Origin: Gammaproteobacteria bacterium
Lineage (GTDB): Bacteria; Pseudomonadota; Gammaproteobacteria; SG8-11
Assembly: GCA_013151345.1 (NCBI GenBank)
Contig: JAADIM010000008.1
Location: 1 to 51,714 of the forward strand
Length of the DNA: 51,714 nt
Direction: 5' to 3'
The notes under the pieces were generated by a model. The model was not told where the DNA came from and did no database searches. It saw only the letters and a program-made list of their open reading frames with translations. Positions within the stretch are counted from its first letter, which is position 1. Each line of letters starts with the position of its first letter. Shown piece by piece: positions 7,720-36,470 of the stretch. A program made the position numbers and the translations under genes.

Positions 7720-8232
7720 ATGAGCAAATACCAAAAATTAAATAAACTTTTATCTGACCAGTCCAACGAACTACATACATTGGTCAGTCACGCGCAATTT
7801 TTAGCTCGCTCCAATCAAATATTACTGAACTTACTTAGTGAGCCCTTAAAAAAACACATCTTCTTCTGTAATATTTCAAATGAAACAATGATTATAACAG
7901 TCGACTCTGCAGCCTGGTTAACTAAGGCCAAACTACAACTGCCTGAAATATTTGAAAAATTCAAACAAATGTCTGGGCTTACTAAACTAAAACATACACG
8001 TATAAAAGTCGATCCCTCTAGCTTGTATGCCGATAGTGCGCCTAATACCTATGCCTATGGCCCGTCAAAACCTATACAGGCTGAAAACCTAAATCCATTT
8101 ACCCTGTCGGGGAAAACTTTGTCTCAAATCAGTTCTGCTGCAAACAACTTAAATGAACCAAAATTGAAAAAAGCACTACTCAATCTAGCTAAAACATTGG
8201 CCAGCAAACGCAAACGCCACAGAACAACCTAA
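7720..8232 (+). CDS. dciA: DciA (DUF721) replicative helicase loader family protein
   Basis: ITVDSAAWLTKAKL motif, C-terminal LKKALLNLA helix, opposite-strand position between lpxC and M23/secA. Confidence 0.82.
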   Translation: MSKYQKLNKLLSDQSNELHTLVSHAQFLARSNQILLNLLSEPLKKHIFFCNISNETMIITVDSAAWLTKAKLQLPEIFEKFKQMSGLTKLKHTRIKVDPSSLYADSAPNTYAYGPSKPIQAENLNPFTLSGKTLSQISSAANNLNEPKLKKALLNLAKTLASKRKRHRTT

Positions 8233-8427
8233 TGTTAGCATAAATAATACCCAGAACCGCGAATCCGCTCACAAAAACCAAGCTTTACAAACATTATTAA
8301 CCTATAACTTATTGTAATATAATATAAAGTTTATTAATGGCCAAATAAACACCATTGATAACTGTCTTTCCCTCGGTTTCAAAAAAAGCGGTGACCTAAT
8401 TGTTGATTATTATAGGAAATTTAGAAC

Positions 8428-8454
8428 AAAAAAAGCCAGATAGTTATCTGGCTT
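8428..8454 (-). terminator. Rho-independent terminator after lpxC
   Basis: GCCAGATA-GT-TATCTGGC hairpin next to an A7 run (U-tract on the minus strand). Confidence 0.8.
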
Positions 8455-8534
8455 CGCTTAACAAAAAGTCGTAACAAAGAGTCCCAACAAAAAGCTCTTA
8501 ATAAGTAGTATTACTAAAATAGCTGCTAAACCAA

Positions 8535-29128: not shown

Positions 29129-30460
29129 TTGCAAGGACAAATGTTGATCTACAAGGACAAATGTGAGGCAAAAAATAAGGGGTATTTGGGCATGATTTTA
29201 CAATGCAACGCGGCAGGATACGCTAATAGCACAGATACAATAGAAATTAATTCTACGGTAATATCCAAAAAAAAGCTTTCCAAAGAGGAAGTTTTCAGCC
29301 TAATTTCAGAATTACTGAATTGTCGCTCCTCCAATGAATTTTCTACGAATAAAAAACGCATAGATAATGGTGATATTGTCACTGCTCTATCTTTAATGCA
29401 GCATAATATCGACACTCTTTTATTTGATAATGATTCAGGTGAATTCCGTTTAGACACGAAAATTATTAGCGATTTCGAACGCTTACTGCATATTAATATG
29501 TCTAGCACGATGAACAAGACTGACGTAGACACAATAGACGTCGTCAGAATGATGTTCGATATTATTTTTGAAGACAAGCGCTTATCAAATAAAACAAAAA
29601 CGCTGCTAGCAAAACTCCAGATTCCAGTACTCAAGGTCGCCTTTCTTGATAACGCTTATTTTTCTGACGACCCGCATCCGGCAGAGCGACTAATTAACAA
29701 ATTAACTGACGCAGCAATATCGCTCACAAAAATCGACGACAATAATAGCCCGTCTTTCTACCCTGAATTAAACGCAATTGTGACCCGAATAACGAATGAA
29801 TTTACCGATGACGCTGCCATATTTTCGGGTATTCTGGAATCATCCCAACTTTTCAAAAAAGAAAAACAAAATAAAACGAATCCATCTACCCAACACTTAT
29901 ATGACGCAACAGAAAAATTAAAACTTTTGTCTAATAGAATACAAAAATCATATTCCACAGACAACATCAAAAAATCAGTAGATGACAAATCAGCGAACAT
30001 CAATGTCAAAACCATTAGTAAAAATAAATTAAACCCTCCTATAGCTGCAACTGCATATGATTCAATAATAAATACTAAAAACTCTGCGCATACCAATCAA
30101 TTGATAACCAATGCAATTAGAAAAAAAATAATTGCAGATGAATTACCAAGAGAGGTGCGTGACTTTCTCACCACTACCTGGGCAAATGTTGCAACAAGGA
30201 TCTACAATGATCACAGTGATAAAAGTGAAATTTGGAAAACAACAATTTCGGTCGTTGATCAATTGGCCTGGATTTTTCAGCCAAAATCAAACTTCGAGGA
30301 TAAACAAAAAATAACTAATATCATTCCTCGTTTAGTAACAAATATTCAAGACGGTTTGGATTCAACAAATAGCGTTAGCAAAAACAAAACGCAATTATTT
30401 GCCACATTGCTATCGATACATGCCGCAAGCCTGAAAGAACAGCGCTTAGCTCGCAACTAG
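29129..30460 (+). CDS. DUF1631-family protein (short form; start uncertain)
   Basis: IDVVRMMFDIIFED...LQIPVLKVAFLD..YF....HPA.RLIN motif and LP..V..FL...W segment. Confidence 0.75.
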   Translation: MQGQMLIYKDKCEAKNKGYLGMILQCNAAGYANSTDTIEINSTVISKKKLSKEEVFSLISELLNCRSSNEFSTNKKRIDNGDIVTALSLMQHNIDTLLFDNDSGEFRLDTKIISDFERLLHINMSSTMNKTDVDTIDVVRMMFDIIFEDKRLSNKTKTLLAKLQIPVLKVAFLDNAYFSDDPHPAERLINKLTDAAISLTKIDDNNSPSFYPELNAIVTRITNEFTDDAAIFSGILESSQLFKKEKQNKTNPSTQHLYDATEKLKLLSNRIQKSYSTDNIKKSVDDKSANINVKTISKNKLNPPIAATAYDSIINTKNSAHTNQLITNAIRKKIIADELPREVRDFLTTTWANVATRIYNDHSDKSEIWKTTISVVDQLAWIFQPKSNFEDKQKITNIIPRLVTNIQDGLDSTNSVSKNKTQLFATLLSIHAASLKEQRLARN

Positions 30461-32219: not shown

Positions 32220-32298
32220 CTTAACTTTACCCGCCAAATCATGTTAAAATAGCAACAATTGTTTTAGATATTACAATAAAACTTGTACGGAGTATGGC

Positions 32299-32664
32299 AT
32301 GGCCAATATACAATTTGATCAAAAATTAACAAATGAAATTAAAGTCTCGCCTGCAGCGATTGAACAACTTATCGCAATCACTTCAAGTGAGGAAGACGTA
32401 AATGGTATTCGCATATTTGTTTCTGGCGGTGGTTGCGGTGGTATGACATACGGCCTGACCTTTGTCGACAAACCCAGCTCATATGATCGCGTACTAGAAA
32501 GTAAAGGCCTGAATATATATGTCGACTCGGTTGCATTGAGTTTCCTCGAAGGCGTAGAAATTGATTATAAAACGGAGGGTCTTAATACGAACTTCGTATT
32601 CTCAAATGTATTCGCCAATTCAGGTGGAAGCGGCACGTGCGGTGGATGCGGTGGTGCAGGTTAA
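32299..32664 (+). CDS. HesB/IscA-family (A-type) Fe-S carrier, atypical
   Basis: IRIFVSGGGCGGMTY, YVD..AL.FL.G..IDY, C-terminal TCGGCGG. Confidence 0.9.
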   Translation: MANIQFDQKLTNEIKVSPAAIEQLIAITSSEEDVNGIRIFVSGGGCGGMTYGLTFVDKPSSYDRVLESKGLNIYVDSVALSFLEGVEIDYKTEGLNTNFVFSNVFANSGGSGTCGGCGGAG

Positions 32665-32714
32665 GTGGGGATGAAGGAGGAGGATGCAGTTGAACCCTAT
32701 CCTTCTACCCAGTT

Positions 32715-32799
32715 TTTTAGTACATTATTTTAGTACATAGTTTTAGTACATAGTTTTAGTACATAGTTTTAGTACATAGTTTTAGTACATAGTTTTAGT
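32715..32799. repeat. 13-bp VNTR TTTTAGTACATAG
   Basis: One imperfect copy (32715), five perfect copies (32728-32792) and a partial copy. Confidence 0.95.
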
Positions 32800-32878
32800 C
32801 AGTAGTCGTGATAATATTTTTTTCAGTACTTTTTTCTAAAATTTTTTTAAAACTTTTTTTAAAAGAAGTGGCCCGGTT

Positions 32879-34123
32879 ATACGCTCTCGTATTCTACTCA
32901 TAACCCAACCAAACAGTTACCGAATTGCACCCTACATAAAAGCAGCGAACCGCATGGGCCTCGAGGTACTGATTGCGTCGCGCGGCGAACATTCGCTGAT
33001 TTCCGAGGTTCACCGCGGCTTGCACATTGATCTGGAAAATCTCAACAGTTCACTCACCCACATTCTCAAAGAAGAAAAAAAAACACCCTTTGCAGGCGTG
33101 TTAGGCAGCGATGACAGTACCGTAGAGCTTGCTGCTAAAGTCGCAGACGCACTTGGACTCCCGCAAAACCCACAAACCGCCGCACGCTTGACCCAACGCA
33201 AAGACCTGGCACGCGCCCACCTGACACAAGCTGGCTGCCCCGTACCAAAATACCGCTTGATCAATATTGACATTCCGCTCAATAAGCAAATAGCGGGCTT
33301 TCCTTGGCCCTGTGTGATCAAACCCCTAAATCTATCTGCAAGCCGGGGGGTTATTCGCGCAAATAACACCGAAGAATTTGTTGCTGCATGTAACCGTATT
33401 AAACCCATTATTGCAGAATCAAATGATGAGTTTGCGAAACACCATATACTTGCAGAAGAATATATCGATGGTATAGAAGTCGCTTTCGAAGGTTATCTTC
33501 ACGACAGCGAACTCACCACGTTGGTGATATTTGACAAACCGGATCCACTAGAAGGACCTTACTTCGAAGAAACAATCTATGTCACGCCATCACAATTGGA
33601 CAATACTACTCAAATAAGAATTAAACAAAACATTGCGCAAGCGTGCAAGGCATATGGCCTGACCACAGGCCCTGTGCACGCCGAGTTACGAATCAATGAA
33701 CAAAATGCCTGGATCTTGGAAGTCGCTTGCCGCACGATTGGTGGAGATTGCGCACGTAGTCTTGATAACGGTAGCAATTTCAATCTGGAAGAACTCGCTA
33801 TATCACTGGCAATAGGTCGTCCAATAAAAACGCGACCACCTGAAGATGCTCGTGGTGTCATGATGATTCCGATCAAGCAAGGCGGTATATTGCGCCGCGT
33901 AGAGGGTATTTCCGCTGCTCTAAAAATCGCAAACATCAAGAAAATTGATATCATTATTCGGGAAGGAAACGAGCTAATCCCGCTTCCGGAAGGAAACCAA
34001 TATCCAGGTTATATTTTCGCTCGCGGCCAATCTCCAACAGATGTCATTCATGCACTCAGAGAAGCGCTTTCTAAGCTAGACTTTGTAGTTGCGCCGCTGT
34101 TTAAATTAAATAAGTTAAATTAA
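32879..34123 (+). CDS. ATP-grasp ligase, L-amino-acid-ligase-like; start probably ATA at 32879, first ATG at 32954
   Basis: PCVIKPLNLSASRGV, AEEYIDG.E, PVHAELR, ILEVACRTIGG; the frame upstream of the ATG encodes RILLITQPNSYRIAPYIKAA. Confidence 0.85.
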   Translation: MRSRILLITQPNSYRIAPYIKAANRMGLEVLIASRGEHSLISEVHRGLHIDLENLNSSLTHILKEEKKTPFAGVLGSDDSTVELAAKVADALGLPQNPQTAARLTQRKDLARAHLTQAGCPVPKYRLINIDIPLNKQIAGFPWPCVIKPLNLSASRGVIRANNTEEFVAACNRIKPIIAESNDEFAKHHILAEEYIDGIEVAFEGYLHDSELTTLVIFDKPDPLEGPYFEETIYVTPSQLDNTTQIRIKQNIAQACKAYGLTTGPVHAELRINEQNAWILEVACRTIGGDCARSLDNGSNFNLEELAISLAIGRPIKTRPPEDARGVMMIPIKQGGILRRVEGISAALKIANIKKIDIIIREGNELIPLPEGNQYPGYIFARGQSPTDVIHALREALSKLDFVVAPLFKLNKLN

Positions 34124-34154
34124 ATAAGGCAAACTGAACAAACAGTAATTGAGA

Positions 34155-34442
34155 CTACTTTTTACCGCCGCCAGCCGCCTGAAAACCTGCAGGTAATTGT
34201 CCGTAATCACCTTCTCCAAAAAAGAAGCCTAACATGTGTTTTTCGATCAACTCAATAGATTGAATATCAGCCGTGCTTAGGCCGTTTTCATTTATTATAG
34301 TAGTTGAGCGCTCCAGCCATTGCTGCCACCCTTCCTTGGAAACATTATCAAAAATTCGTTGACCCAATTCACCAGGATGGGTAAATTTATCGAGGCCTTC
34401 GGCTTGTGTTTTTAGAACAACACATTGTACTAATCTGGTCAT
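34155..34442 (-). CDS. yggX: YggX-family Fe(II)-trafficking/oxidative-damage protection protein, divergent
   Basis: R.V.C..L...AEGL, PGELGQRIFDNVSKEGWQQW, IINE; AGGA RBS 6 nt upstream of ATG 34442. Confidence 0.85.
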   Translation of the reverse strand: MTRLVQCVVLKTQAEGLDKFTHPGELGQRIFDNVSKEGWQQWLERSTTIINENGLSTADIQSIELIEKHMLGFFFGEGDYGQLPAGFQAAGGGKK

Positions 34443-34448
34443 CACTTA

Positions 34449-34508
34449 TCCTAATAAAAAAGTCCTAATAAAAAAGTCCTAATAAATAAAAGTCCTAATA
34501 AATAAAAG
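34449..34508. repeat. Four 14-16 bp tandem repeats TCCTAATAAA(TA)AAAG
   Basis: Read directly; each copy carries AGGA on the minus strand. Confidence 0.9.
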
Positions 34509-34552
34509 CACTAAAAATTAATGCTTAATATTAATAATACTAATAAAAAATT

Positions 34553-35602
34553 TTATTCATATTTTTTCAACAAAACACCTTCATCACCACAACAGCTGGC
34601 AGCACATTGTTTTATTTGAAATATCTCTTCTTCGCTACCTTCGAGATAAGATGCTATCGGGCGGTTTTCCTTGGCACAATCGCAACCCTTATCATTATAC
34701 ACATAAATATTTTTCAGTCCCGCCCGTACGGCTGCGTCTTGCGCCTTAAATAATATATCTTCTGGTGTTGGGGGTAAATGACTTAATTTATAGGCCGGAA
34801 AAAACCGGGTGATATGCCAAGGACTTTCTTTACCCAGATTATCCCGTACCCAACATGCGATTTCGTAGTGCTCTTCAGGATCATCATTCTTGCCAGGAAT
34901 AATATTGGTTCGAGTTTCCACATGAATACCCAACTCATGAGCTTTTTTGATCGAGTGCAAAACCTGCTCTACTTTGGCAGGTCGACATATTTCCTTATAG
35001 AAGATATCACGCATGCTTTTGATGTCAGAACAGAGCACATCAATATACGGCGCAACTAATTCCAGCGCCTCGTCGGTAATATAGCTATTGGAAACATACA
35101 CCGTATATAATCCTGCGGCATGCGCCAATTTGCTTACATCTATCACGTACTCTAACCATACCGCTGGCTCTGAGTAAGTAAAAGCAATACCCTGAACATT
35201 AGCCCGTATCGCTGAATCAATCAGAGACTGGGGCGTTACCCAGGCTTCCTTGGACTCGCCTTTCGCAAGACTATCCAATGCTTCTACACCCCAGGAAATA
35301 TCCAAATTATGACAACCCCCACAGCGAAAGCTGCAACCGTAACTACCTACTGACATTACGCGTGTTCCCGGGCGAAAATGCTTGACCGGCTTATCCTCGA
35401 TAGGATCAATATCAATGGACGACAAAATACCATATGATAGGTTATACAACGTCCCATTGCGATTTACATGCGCCTGACAAAAACCACGTTGCCCATGAAC
35501 AATCTTGCAACGCCACAGACACAGATTACAGCGCGTTGCCCCATTATCTAGTTTTTCCTGTAACCGAGTTTCTACGAGTTGGTATTGATTCGCTACTGCC
35601 AT
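34553..35602 (-). CDS. Radical SAM enzyme, AmmeMemoRadiSam (AmrS)/PflA-like family, with Cys-rich tail
   Basis: N-terminal CNLCLWRC...GFC, DPIEDKP, CSFRCGGC, FTYSEP, PWHITRFFPAYKL; ATG at 35602 with AAGGT RBS. Confidence 0.88.
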   Translation of the reverse strand: MAVANQYQLVETRLQEKLDNGATRCNLCLWRCKIVHGQRGFCQAHVNRNGTLYNLSYGILSSIDIDPIEDKPVKHFRPGTRVMSVGSYGCSFRCGGCHNLDISWGVEALDSLAKGESKEAWVTPQSLIDSAIRANVQGIAFTYSEPAVWLEYVIDVSKLAHAAGLYTVYVSNSYITDEALELVAPYIDVLCSDIKSMRDIFYKEICRPAKVEQVLHSIKKAHELGIHVETRTNIIPGKNDDPEEHYEIACWVRDNLGKESPWHITRFFPAYKLSHLPPTPEDILFKAQDAAVRAGLKNIYVYNDKGCDCAKENRPIASYLEGSEEEIFQIKQCAASCCGDEGVLLKKYE

Positions 35603-35786
35603 AACAATTGACCTTAAATACAAAATACTTAGGATGCGTAATAAAACAAGCGCATAGTGGAAAAACCGTTTTATGTTATATATTTATATTAACACACCAA
35701 ATCAAGCACAAACACTCAGCAAAACCAGGTGTTCTTTACAGTACTAAACGTTAAAATATATTAATTTATTAACAAAGGTAGCTACC

Positions 35787-36470
35787 ATGTTTCATTGCCT
35801 GTCACTTCGAGTTTTACTGCTCATTTCTATTATTTTCCTGCAGTCCAACGCCGCACAAGCCTTGATGTTGGATATGCAAGAAAATGGTGAGTTTTCACTT
35901 AATTTGGAACGTGTTACGACTGACCTGAAATTTGACAACGCGGTCATCGAGAACCGTATTAGCCGTATTTATATGTCAATATATGAAGCGTCTTATGCCT
36001 GGTTTCAACCTGGATTGAAATTGGGTTACTTGTCCAGCACACAAAGTAACAACCCAATTACTGCCGGCATCAATCTGTCGGGAGAAATAATCGGCATTTC
36101 ACTAATTACTAACATTCCACCACGTCGATTTCTAAGTACACAAATTGAAATGGATTATCTATATCACGATGTTAATAAAGAAACATTTACACAAAAAGTC
36201 TCACTCAAATGGTACGAATTTATAGCTAAAGCAGGCGTATCGATAAATCCAGGCTTGTGGCAACTTTCAATTGGCAGATACTTTCATTTAATTGATGGTG
36301 ATGAAACTGCATATGGCACAATTATTCAAACACGACATTTTAAAGAAGAAAAACAAACCGGAAGTTATCTTGATTTTACGTTATTCGTCGACAGTACCGG
36401 TAAAGTAGGTATCCGTGCACAAGGCGGAAGTCGCCGTGGAATTAATCTTGTTTTTTCAAGAGAATATTAG
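35787..36470 (+). CDS. Secreted, probable outer-membrane beta-barrel protein of unknown function
   Basis: Signal peptide (AQA), alternating beta-strand pattern, C-terminal LVFSREY. Confidence 0.6.
   Translation: MFHCLSLRVLLLISIIFLQSNAAQALMLDMQENGEFSLNLERVTTDLKFDNAVIENRISRIYMSIYEASYAWFQPGLKLGYLSSTQSNNPITAGINLSGEIIGISLITNIPPRRFLSTQIEMDYLYHDVNKETFTQKVSLKWYEFIAKAGVSINPGLWQLSIGRYFHLIDGDETAYGTIIQTRHFKEEKQTGSYLDFTLFVDSTGKVGIRAQGGSRRGINLVFSREY

Follow-up and report, generated by a model that had tools for sequence, protein, structure and literature searches.

Four neighbouring genes in a gammaproteobacterial contig (JAADIM010000008.1) are the subject of this report, and the whole 51,714-nucleotide stretch that was analysed is referred to here as the window. 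The genes encode a HesB-like paralogue of the A-type iron-sulfur (Fe-S) carriers, an ATP-grasp ligase, a paralogue of YggX and a radical S-adenosylmethionine (SAM) enzyme that resembles AmrS, and they are arranged as HesB-like > ATP-grasp >< YggX-like < AmrS-like radical SAM. On balance, we lean towards the view that this set is one copy of a conserved gammaproteobacterial system that would make an amino-acid-derived small molecule or cofactor through the action of the ligase and the radical SAM enzyme. Judged from sequence comparisons, these two enzymes are the probable catalytic core, and the A-type carrier and YggX paralogues look like dispensable helpers. We favour such a core, acting on a free small substrate, because the ligase is always present, because the radical SAM slot is shared by two families, and because one genus of the family to which the window belongs (designated g3) has the two enzymes without the helpers. 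The gene order had been described in an initial annotation of the window, including the 31 bp that separate the convergent stop codons, and all four open reading frames (ORFs) proved to be intact where that annotation had placed them.

Conservation of the gene set and exchange of its radical SAM partner

Relatives of the window radical SAM enzyme were collected by scanning one genome per species. This search yielded 161 relatives, from which the best 80 loci (77-87% identical) were used. Two further collections were examined. An even sample of the class comprised 400 genomes, in which the surroundings of the radical SAM gene were obtained for 40 of the 45 genomes with an orthologue; with two more added, this gave 42 loci. 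A set centred on the ATP-grasp gene contributed 40 further loci, 26 of them from genomes without an AmrS-like enzyme and 14 from genomes in which the AmrS-like gene is unlinked. The ORFs in the related loci were assigned by a simple longest-ORF rule, and many of the genomes are incomplete metagenome-assembled genomes that are mutually related.

Representatives of the radical SAM enzyme occur in Thiogranum, Thiohalobacter, Thiohalophilus, Thiotrichaceae, Methylomarinum, a Methylococcales sponge symbiont and many other Gammaproteobacteria. In every one of the 80 best loci, a YggX paralogue is located directly downstream of the radical SAM gene and on the same strand, with gaps of 10-201 bp. The ATP-grasp gene is present in 69 of these loci; among the 11 that lack it, seven have less than 1.3 kb of contig left and four have 3-7.7 kb. 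The HesB-like gene was found in 63 of the 80; it is present wherever the contig continues past the ATP-grasp gene (63 loci), and in the six loci with ATP-grasp and no HesB-like gene the contig ends within 150 bases of ATP-grasp. In the 69 loci that hold ATP-grasp, the convergent ends are a median of 133 bp apart; nine of them have unrelated genes inserted and a distance of more than 1 kb.

Two additional genes recur in this collection. In 36 of the 80 best loci, the gene immediately upstream of the radical SAM gene is formyltransferase-like (PF00551, 79.5 bits; the Fmt model gives 99.5 bits, which is under its cut-off), and a DsrE-like gene that passes NF040913 (‘SaoD/DsrE family’) is found in 21. 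With the queries used, no orthologue of either was detected in the window's own genome.

In the even sample, a radical SAM orthologue (62-87% identity) is carried by 45 of the 400 genomes, with three of these genes partial or split, and canonical AmrS matches in the sample reach no more than 38%. An ATP-grasp orthologue (41-80% identity) is carried by 71. All 45 genomes with the radical SAM enzyme also have the ATP-grasp enzyme, even where the two genes are on different contigs or hundreds of kilobases apart, as exemplified by G029 and G155. The initial annotation had reasoned that the closest homologues should co-occur in other genomes, and they do so both in the 80 best loci and in the 400-genome sample.

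The arrangement of the window is found in seven of the 42 even-sample loci, and a second arrangement, <YggX-like HesB-like>ATP-grasp>radical SAM>, in eight. The pair radical SAM>YggX paralogue stands alone in two loci, with the ligase elsewhere, and none of the partner genes is near the radical SAM gene in nine. One locus, from genus g3, consists of ATP-grasp>radical SAM, with the stop codon of the first gene overlapping the start codon of the second, and lacks helper genes. In the remaining loci, the radical SAM gene is convergent on canonical mutY-yggX (13 loci: L123-L125, L127, L129, L131, L133, L140, L141, L144, L145, L155 and L027) or on mutY alone (two loci, L132 and L154). Genomes with such mutY-linked loci have the ligase trio, with its own YggX paralogue, elsewhere; in one of the 15 (L141), ATP-grasp lies on the other side of the radical SAM gene.

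When the ATP-grasp gene is taken as the centre instead, an A-type carrier gene lies directly upstream of it in 35 of the 40 loci, and a stricter score rule classes 33 of these as HesB-like. Of the 40 loci, 32 hold a YggX paralogue, which is convergent within 600 bp in 23. The four genes named in the initial annotation are therefore not the fixed extent of the set: the widespread unit is the trio HesB-like > ATP-grasp >< YggX paralogue, and the AmrS-like radical SAM enzyme can be exchanged for another. No ligase orthologue was found among 400 other genomes of the phylum from 89 families, a sample weighted to large, well-sequenced families.

An order from which these arrangements may descend is suggested by one locus (L160), in which the trio lies directly after canonical mutY>yggX. 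Because L160 thereby presents its left part, we propose the ancestral order mutY>yggX>HesB-like>ATP-grasp> <YggX-like <radical SAM, in which the HesB-like and YggX paralogues could have arisen by local duplication. The radical SAM genes now next to mutY-yggX could be a relic of that order, what remained after the trio had moved away, or they could reflect a second functional link to the YggX family.

The exchange of the radical SAM enzyme is most evident in genomes that lack the AmrS-like form. In five ATP-grasp loci from such genomes, a 460-aa CCAEP-tail radical SAM enzyme adjoins the set. This partner is a member of NF040546 (‘CUAEP/CCAEP-tail radical SAM (seleno)protein’), scoring 594-618 bits in these five loci and 594-647 bits across the ATP-grasp genomes that carry it, against a cut-off of 500, and its next-best model is ArsL, at 258-266 bits and below the cut-off of 450. 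NF040546 members are present in 20 of the 400 even-sample genomes; 17 of the 20 have the ATP-grasp enzyme and none has the AmrS-like enzyme. Of the 71 ATP-grasp genomes, conversely, 45 have the AmrS-like enzyme, 17 have the CCAEP-tail one, none has both and nine have neither. No NF040546 match was detected in the window's own genome (68.5% complete) or in the same-genus genome G001 (95% complete). For CCAEP-tail genes that are unlinked from the ligase gene, no conserved neighbours were found across 12 loci.

Two loci (L178 and L180) read CCAEP-tail radical SAM>YggX-like> <ATP-grasp<HesB-like, which is the architecture of the window with the other enzyme in the AmrS-like slot. Within genus g3, one genome (G009; L028, 5548-7946) carries ATP-grasp>AmrS-like and another (G005; L163, 6547-9308) carries ATP-grasp>CCAEP-tail between the same flanking genes. 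On one side of the radical SAM gene lies ATP-grasp (its products in the two genomes are 64% identical), and on the other are genes for a PilZ protein, a TPMT-family protein, a CBS protein and a MiaB/RimO-type protein; G009 has an extra 291-aa gene after the radical SAM gene. The AmrS-like enzyme is thus one of two interchangeable partners of the ligase. Because both families occur in the same slot within a single genus, the exchange is not just a deep lineage split. The HesB-like and YggX paralogues are both missing from the two g3 genomes, where the best matches (39-43% and 57-63%, respectively) are at canonical levels.

These observations also bear on whether the genes form a functional unit at all. 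The adjacency could be no more than synteny inherited among related genomes, given that related environmental genomes, which are not independent, account for many of the 80 best loci, and that blocks such as lpxA-fabZ…TPMT-M16 recur upstream. However, the block is kept while its flanks change, with several unrelated contexts (at least three) in the 80 best loci and more in the other samples, and it is kept in two gene orders. The presence of the ligase in all 45 genomes with the AmrS-like enzyme extends to unlinked genes, and the second radical SAM family is distributed in a complementary fashion. We therefore disfavour the synteny explanation and judge it very improbable.

A TPMT-family methyltransferase was considered as a further partner and rejected. 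Of about 180 loci, 32 contain one, as a rule at a distance of 3-5 kb and with other genes between. The TPMT gene lies near either radical SAM family, at about 1-5 kb and in several different contexts, in L054-L110 (27 loci), L028, L163, L121, L206 and L207. Its linkage may be background synteny, with a small residual doubt, and there is no such gene in the window.

The four proteins and their canonical counterparts

The source assembly (2.18 Mb, 134 contigs) holds a canonical counterpart of each of the three non-ligase genes. On contig C7, mutY is followed by a canonical 90-aa YggX (142.6 bits), and on contig C106 an ErpA gene (194.6 bits) adjoins anmK. A full-scoring AmrS (662.2 bits, TIGR04337 profile positions 2-349) is encoded at the start of contig C17 (735-1829), and Memo and AMMECR1 lie side by side at the end of contig C111 (14455-15790); given these positions near contig ends, the three-gene system may span an assembly gap. 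The four window genes are extra copies, separate from the canonical mutY-yggX, erpA and AmrS/Memo/AMMECR1 of the genome, and the supposition in the initial annotation that they are not its only housekeeping copies was borne out. That annotation had further described every gene as atypical for its family, which holds for the HesB-like protein (C-G-x-C), the radical SAM enzyme (C-terminal motif) and the YggX-like protein (GGGGKK subfamily) but not for the ATP-grasp enzyme.

The radical SAM enzyme scores just above the cut-off of the AmrS model TIGR04337 (229.1 bits versus 220), and the match is limited to profile positions 2-287 of 349. Its identity is 34-37% with canonical AmrS and 62-87% with its own orthologues. 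The radical SAM domain (PF04055) scores 70.2 bits, and the cysteines of its CX3CX2C motif (C90, C94 and C97) are invariant in 66 sequences; the other conserved cysteines are, near the N-terminus, C25, C28, C32 and C42 and, towards the C-terminus, C307, C309, C333, C337 and C338. A structure model (predicted local distance difference test score, pLDDT, 84) has as its best fold match the pyruvate formate-lyase (PFL) activating enzyme (template modelling score, TMt, 0.79). The protein thus bears the marks of the superfamily, namely the CX3CX2C motif and, as modelled, a partial TIM-barrel fold.

The enzyme shares with the AmrS of AmmeMemoRadiSam systems the N-terminal CxxCxxxC…C motif, the CX3CX2C motif and part of the C-terminal cysteine pattern. 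Unlike canonical AmrS, it has its own C-terminus, CDC…CxxxCCG…LLKKYE, with C337 and C338 as a vicinal pair (CAASCCG); the canonical protein reads C-A-G at this point, and Cys-Cys thus takes the place of its Cys-Ala. There is no AMMECR1 or Memo gene in the window locus, and neither was recurrent in a neighbour clustering of 162 related loci, in which they were not searched for by name. An identity of the locus as an AmmeMemoRadiSam system was rejected on the grounds that the AMMECR1 and Memo partners are absent and that the canonical system is elsewhere in the genome. Identity as an isc, suf, erpA or mutY-yggX locus was likewise rejected for the window gene set.

The YggX-like protein is a member of its family (PF04362, 96.6 bits; NF003817, 97.3 bits against a cut-off of 74) and retains the N-terminal cysteine and the core motifs of the mutY-linked form. 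At least 90% of 59 sequences have this cysteine, C7. The protein shares 51% identity with the canonical YggX of the genome. In contrast to the canonical protein, it ends in PAGFxxGGGGKK, and in a tree of 58 YggX proteins the paralogues (47 rows) and canonical forms (11 rows) are separated by one splitting branch with an SH-like approximate likelihood ratio test (SH-aLRT) value of 100; G070 and G245 contribute one protein of each kind. These sequence data place the paralogue in a separate, well-supported subfamily. The usual context of YggX is downstream of mutY, as it is for the C7 copy, whereas the window gene follows the radical SAM gene and is linked to it and to ATP-grasp. A complex prediction for the radical SAM enzyme with the YggX paralogue scored 0.00; it was made without controls and is not evidence either way. 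In one locus (L122 of G232, 7872-8513), a second and much more divergent pair of YggX-like (50%) and HesB-like (34%) genes is present besides the usual pair, immediately upstream of the formyltransferase-like and radical SAM genes, and the helper pair there was apparently duplicated locally.

The HesB-like protein shares the domain of ErpA, IscA and SufA (PF01521, 67.9 bits; TIGR00049, 80.4 bits against a cut-off of 58.8) and has the first cysteine of these carriers conserved in a GGGC context (GGGCGG). It falls below all three equivalog cut-offs: ErpA (67.7 versus 117), IscA (70.9 versus 150.6) and SufA (74.6 versus 136.2). A-type carriers have three conserved cysteines in the pattern C…C-G-C. 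The ErpA of the genome follows this rule with C-G-C, whereas the window protein and the 59 subfamily members listed have C-G-x-C instead. Also in contrast to ErpA, IscA and SufA, the subfamily has an added glycine-rich tail, often with a further cysteine, of the form …FANxGGSGxCGxCG…, followed mostly by GGGCG or GGGCA. The extreme C-termini are variable (GGGCG, GGGCA, GGAG, GGAV, GGAH and others), and the window copy ends in GGAG. Finally, the gene lies in an operon with the ATP-grasp ligase, outside isc, suf or erpA contexts.

The ATP-grasp enzyme contains ATP-grasp_4 (PF13535, 113 bits), LAL_C2 (PF18603, 47 bits) and ATPgrasp_N domains, and its closest solved sequence is BL00235 (3VOT; E value 1.7e-36). 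Enzymes of the L-amino-acid ligase family form peptide bonds between amino acids. A model of the protein (pLDDT 89) has 3VOT as its best Foldseek match (TM-scores 0.85/0.85), followed by YwfE/BacD and RizA, and with all of these it shares the three-domain fold and LAL_C2. On the basis of this model, it has a full-length L-amino-acid-ligase fold and is predicted to ligate amino acids. The structural alignment with BL00235 gives 24% identity, and, whereas known L-amino-acid ligases reside in antibiotic or dipeptide clusters, this one lies beside paralogues of Fe-S and iron helpers and a radical SAM gene. None of the NCBIfam equivalogs was matched, the RimK-type model TIGR00768 gave 15.8 bits against a cut-off of 143, and a search of the ESM Atlas returned solely generic ATP-grasp/LAL clusters.

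The ligase gene probably starts about 21 codons upstream of ATG 32954, at a non-canonical codon. The frame is open upstream of this ATG (32840-32953), and its translation contains a conserved strand and helix at the N-terminus (…RILLITQPNSYRIAPYIKAANR-M…), yet it has no ATG, GTG or TTG back to the preceding stop codon, and the same is true of 11 other loci examined. We propose this start because the 21 upstream codons are in frame, are conserved (32 sequences share six invariant residues), form the opening strand and helix of the N-domain in the structure model and offer no ATG, GTG or TTG. The start codon is possibly the ATT at 32891. A non-canonical start may keep translation of the ligase low.

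Given that a small protein gene is directly upstream of the ligase gene in 35 of 40 loci, the ligase might act on a protein instead of a free amino acid. It would then add to or cross-link the glycine-rich tail of the HesB-like protein (…CGxCG…GGGCG) or the YggX-like protein (…GGGGKK), and the radical SAM enzyme would modify the tethered group. Both small proteins have subfamily-specific glycine-rich tails that are missing from their canonical counterparts, and there are precedents for such chemistry in RimK with S6 and LysX with LysW. However, the variable C-terminus of the HesB-like protein argues against a precise recognition end, and the fold and sequence of the ligase are of the L-amino-acid-ligase type and not of the RimK type. 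Moreover, genus g3 has the ligase and a radical SAM enzyme and lacks both small proteins, and therefore the ligase substrate there is neither of them. We consider modification of a protein tail unlikely. Since the two enzymes persist in g3 without the paralogues, the helpers look dispensable. The initial annotation had suggested that the ligase and radical SAM enzyme make or modify a cofactor, a small metabolite or a protein tail; the g3 genomes leave the first two standing and make the third less likely.

A candidate biosynthetic pathway and the evidence for and against it

If the set does make a small molecule or cofactor, as we favour, the radical SAM enzyme, whether AmrS-like or CCAEP-tail, would make or alter an amino-acid-like compound, and the ligase would join the product to a second amino acid via an acyl-phosphate intermediate. 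The HesB-like and YggX paralogues may provide the radical SAM step with iron, Fe-S clusters or another soft atom, or restore these, with the A-type carrier presumably transcribed with the ligase and the YggX-type iron protein transcribed, in this locus, with the radical SAM enzyme. In some lineages, the formyltransferase-like enzyme and the DsrE/SaoD-like protein could add further steps; a free amine is implied by the optional formyltransferase. Such a pathway would yield a small molecule or cofactor within the cell. The order of the steps, the nature of the product and the roles of the helpers are all inferred. The initial annotation had envisaged dedicated cluster delivery to the radical SAM enzyme; because the HesB-like gene is tied to ATP-grasp, we can retain such delivery only as a proposal.

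A known combination of this kind is found in pyrrolysine biosynthesis, where the radical SAM enzyme PylB makes an unusual amino acid and the ATP-grasp enzyme PylC ligates it. In contrast to PylB and PylC, both enzymes of the present set belong to different families, there is no pylD, pylS or pylT, and iron and Fe-S helper paralogues are present. Although each gene belongs to a known superfamily, the set matches no described system that we found, and on sequence grounds it appears to be a cassette of a radical SAM enzyme and a ligase with helper paralogues and an interchangeable radical SAM component. In the literature searched, no description of the combination of YggX, radical SAM and ATP-grasp genes was found, which agrees with the initial annotation, whose author recognised no described pathway with this gene set. 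The AmmeMemoRadiSam literature that was found holds nothing on function, and no link between YggX and radical SAM enzymes is apparent from the listing of the literature found.

The kinship of the alternative partner suggests a more specific chemistry. According to one preprint, ArsL, the closest characterised relative of the CCAEP-tail enzyme, builds an amino acid by transferring the SAM-derived 3-amino-3-carboxypropyl group onto arsenite, which is held by a cysteine-rich tail of the enzyme (10.1101/2024.02.01.577332). The set resembles the ArsL/ArsM pathway in that the alternative partner of the ligase is an NF040546 member with ArsL as its next-best model, and the window AmrS-like enzyme resembles ArsL and the CCAEP-tail enzymes in that it too has a vicinal Cys-Cys near its C-terminus. 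It differs from ArsL and NF040546 in its structural class, which is PFL-activase-like, and the locus differs from the arsinothricin pathway in that there is no arsM and no ars operon nearby. In the literature searched, NF040546 and SaoD are covered only by the Haft preprint, which calls NF040546 uncharacterised and associates the SaoD-like branch with metal-uptake genes.

By analogy with these enzymes, the set might be a core pathway, present in about one-sixth of the sampled species, in which the ligase and either vicinal-cysteine radical SAM enzyme build a heteroatom-containing amino acid or dipeptide. A new C-S, C-Se or C-metal(loid) bond would be formed much as ArsL forms a C-As bond, and the YggX and A-type paralogues would hand over iron, sulfur or the soft atom. 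We put this forward tentatively and think it improbable in this specific form. A loose parallel is that human Memo, from the family of the canonical AmrS partner, is reported to bind iron (PMC11081632).

Were the heteroatom proposal true, it would give the first concrete biochemical role to a YggX-family protein, an AmrS-like radical SAM enzyme and the CCAEP-tail family together. All three families are widespread, and we found no established biochemical function for any of them. Through this system, one representative of each is linked to a ligase whose reaction type is known, and the system offers a natural experiment in which two species of one genus have swapped radical SAM families in the same slot; three open questions thereby become one testable system. 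It is common in sulfur-oxidising and methane-oxidising marine lineages, and its product may matter for the handling of iron, sulfur and trace elements in sediments and vents.

Several observations weigh against a dedicated biosynthetic pathway. Both radical SAM families are missing from nine of the 71 ATP-grasp genomes (four of the nine are less than 81% complete), and three of the 20 CCAEP-tail genomes lack the ATP-grasp enzyme. The radical SAM gene is unlinked from ATP-grasp in 26 of the 42 even-sample loci (15 at mutY or mutY-yggX, nine alone and two with the YggX paralogue). The HesB-like gene is tied to the ligase and not to the radical SAM gene, which a pure supply of clusters to the radical SAM enzyme does not predict. 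The related loci show no consistent linkage of the set to a transporter, a regulator or a further tailoring enzyme, and the radical SAM enzyme, at 62-87% identity across about 30 families, is unusually conserved for an enzyme of secondary metabolism. The two unrelated radical SAM families could be alternative tailoring steps and not equivalents. Lastly, the genomes are related to one another, and the counts and Fisher tests of co-occurrence overstate their independence.

Some of the same evidence can be read in favour of a condition-specific module for iron and Fe-S maintenance, in which the HesB-like and YggX-like proteins back up ErpA and YggX, and the ATP-grasp and radical SAM enzymes are clients or produce a ligand for clusters, for example a thiol peptide. 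Two members of the set have their paralogues among the housekeeping genes for Fe-S clusters and iron, the trio has canonical erpA, hemJ and argC nearby in about 10 loci and directly follows mutY-yggX in L160, and the radical SAM gene is found beside mutY-yggX or mutY in the 15 loci described above. The conserved, constitutive-looking extended -10 promoter with no operator motif (see below) and the nine trio genomes with neither radical SAM enzyme are also consistent with this explanation. However, the only gene that is always present is the ligase, whose closest relatives form dipeptides, and g3 keeps the ligase and a radical SAM enzyme without either helper paralogue. The in-place exchange of radical SAM enzymes fits an enzymatic step better than a client role, and the adjacency to mutY-yggX is explicable as a remnant of the proposed ancestral order, the left part of which is seen in L160. 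We therefore regard a maintenance module as possible, with a low probability.

Feature coordinates and flanking sequence

The positions of the four genes, the convergent spacer and a promoter-like site are collected in the table.

Features of the four-gene locus, numbered from the first nucleotide of the window
Feature	Position	Strand	Remarks
A-type Fe-S carrier paralogue (HesB/IscA/ErpA-like), 121 aa	32299..32664	+	Gly/Cys-rich tail ...GTCGGCGGAG
L-amino-acid-ligase-type ATP-grasp enzyme	32891..34123	+	389 aa from ATG 32954; 410 aa from the probable start ATT 32891
Spacer between convergent stop codons, 31 bp	34124..34154	.	From ORF coordinates
YggX-family paralogue, 96 aa (95 aa from ATG 34442)	34155..34445	-	Subfamily-specific GGGGKK tail
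AmrS-like (PFL-activase-like) radical SAM paralogue	34553..35623	-	356 aa (TTG 35623) or 349 aa (ATG 35602)
Promoter-like site, extended -10 (TG-n-TAAAAT)	32221..32250	+	49 bp upstream of the HesB-like start; consensus match only

The promoter-like site was recognised in a consensus scan by nine matches to 12 consensus positions and a TG before the -10 element. A related element, TGCTA(A/G)AAT, precedes the HesB-like gene by 40-130 nt in 29 of 109 related loci, and an extended -10 element is the only one enriched there; no operator motif was detected in the 109 loci. A Fur-box-like 8-mer was also considered, but it occurs upstream of the HesB-like gene in eight of the 109 loci and is no commoner than the best 8-mer of shuffled sequences (6 to 8), and for this reason we make no claim of iron regulation. 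A sequence scan of the 31-bp spacer (34124-34154) revealed no terminator-like hairpin.

The spacer between the HesB-like and ATP-grasp genes contains a 13-bp unit repeated 6.5 times in tandem (32715-32799, 97% matches), and a second, AT-rich short repeat is located upstream of ATP-grasp at 32828-32864. On one flank of the four-gene set are a gene for a CheY-type receiver and djlA; on the other are a 227-aa ORF, a PilZ protein and an iron-containing alcohol dehydrogenase. The 227-aa ORF (35787-36470) has no family match and gave no tblastn match in two same-genus loci (L029 and L030), and its product has a signal-peptide-like start. Farther away, the ORF at 29129-30460 encodes a DUF1631/PacR-like protein whose match is confined to the middle of the family profile.

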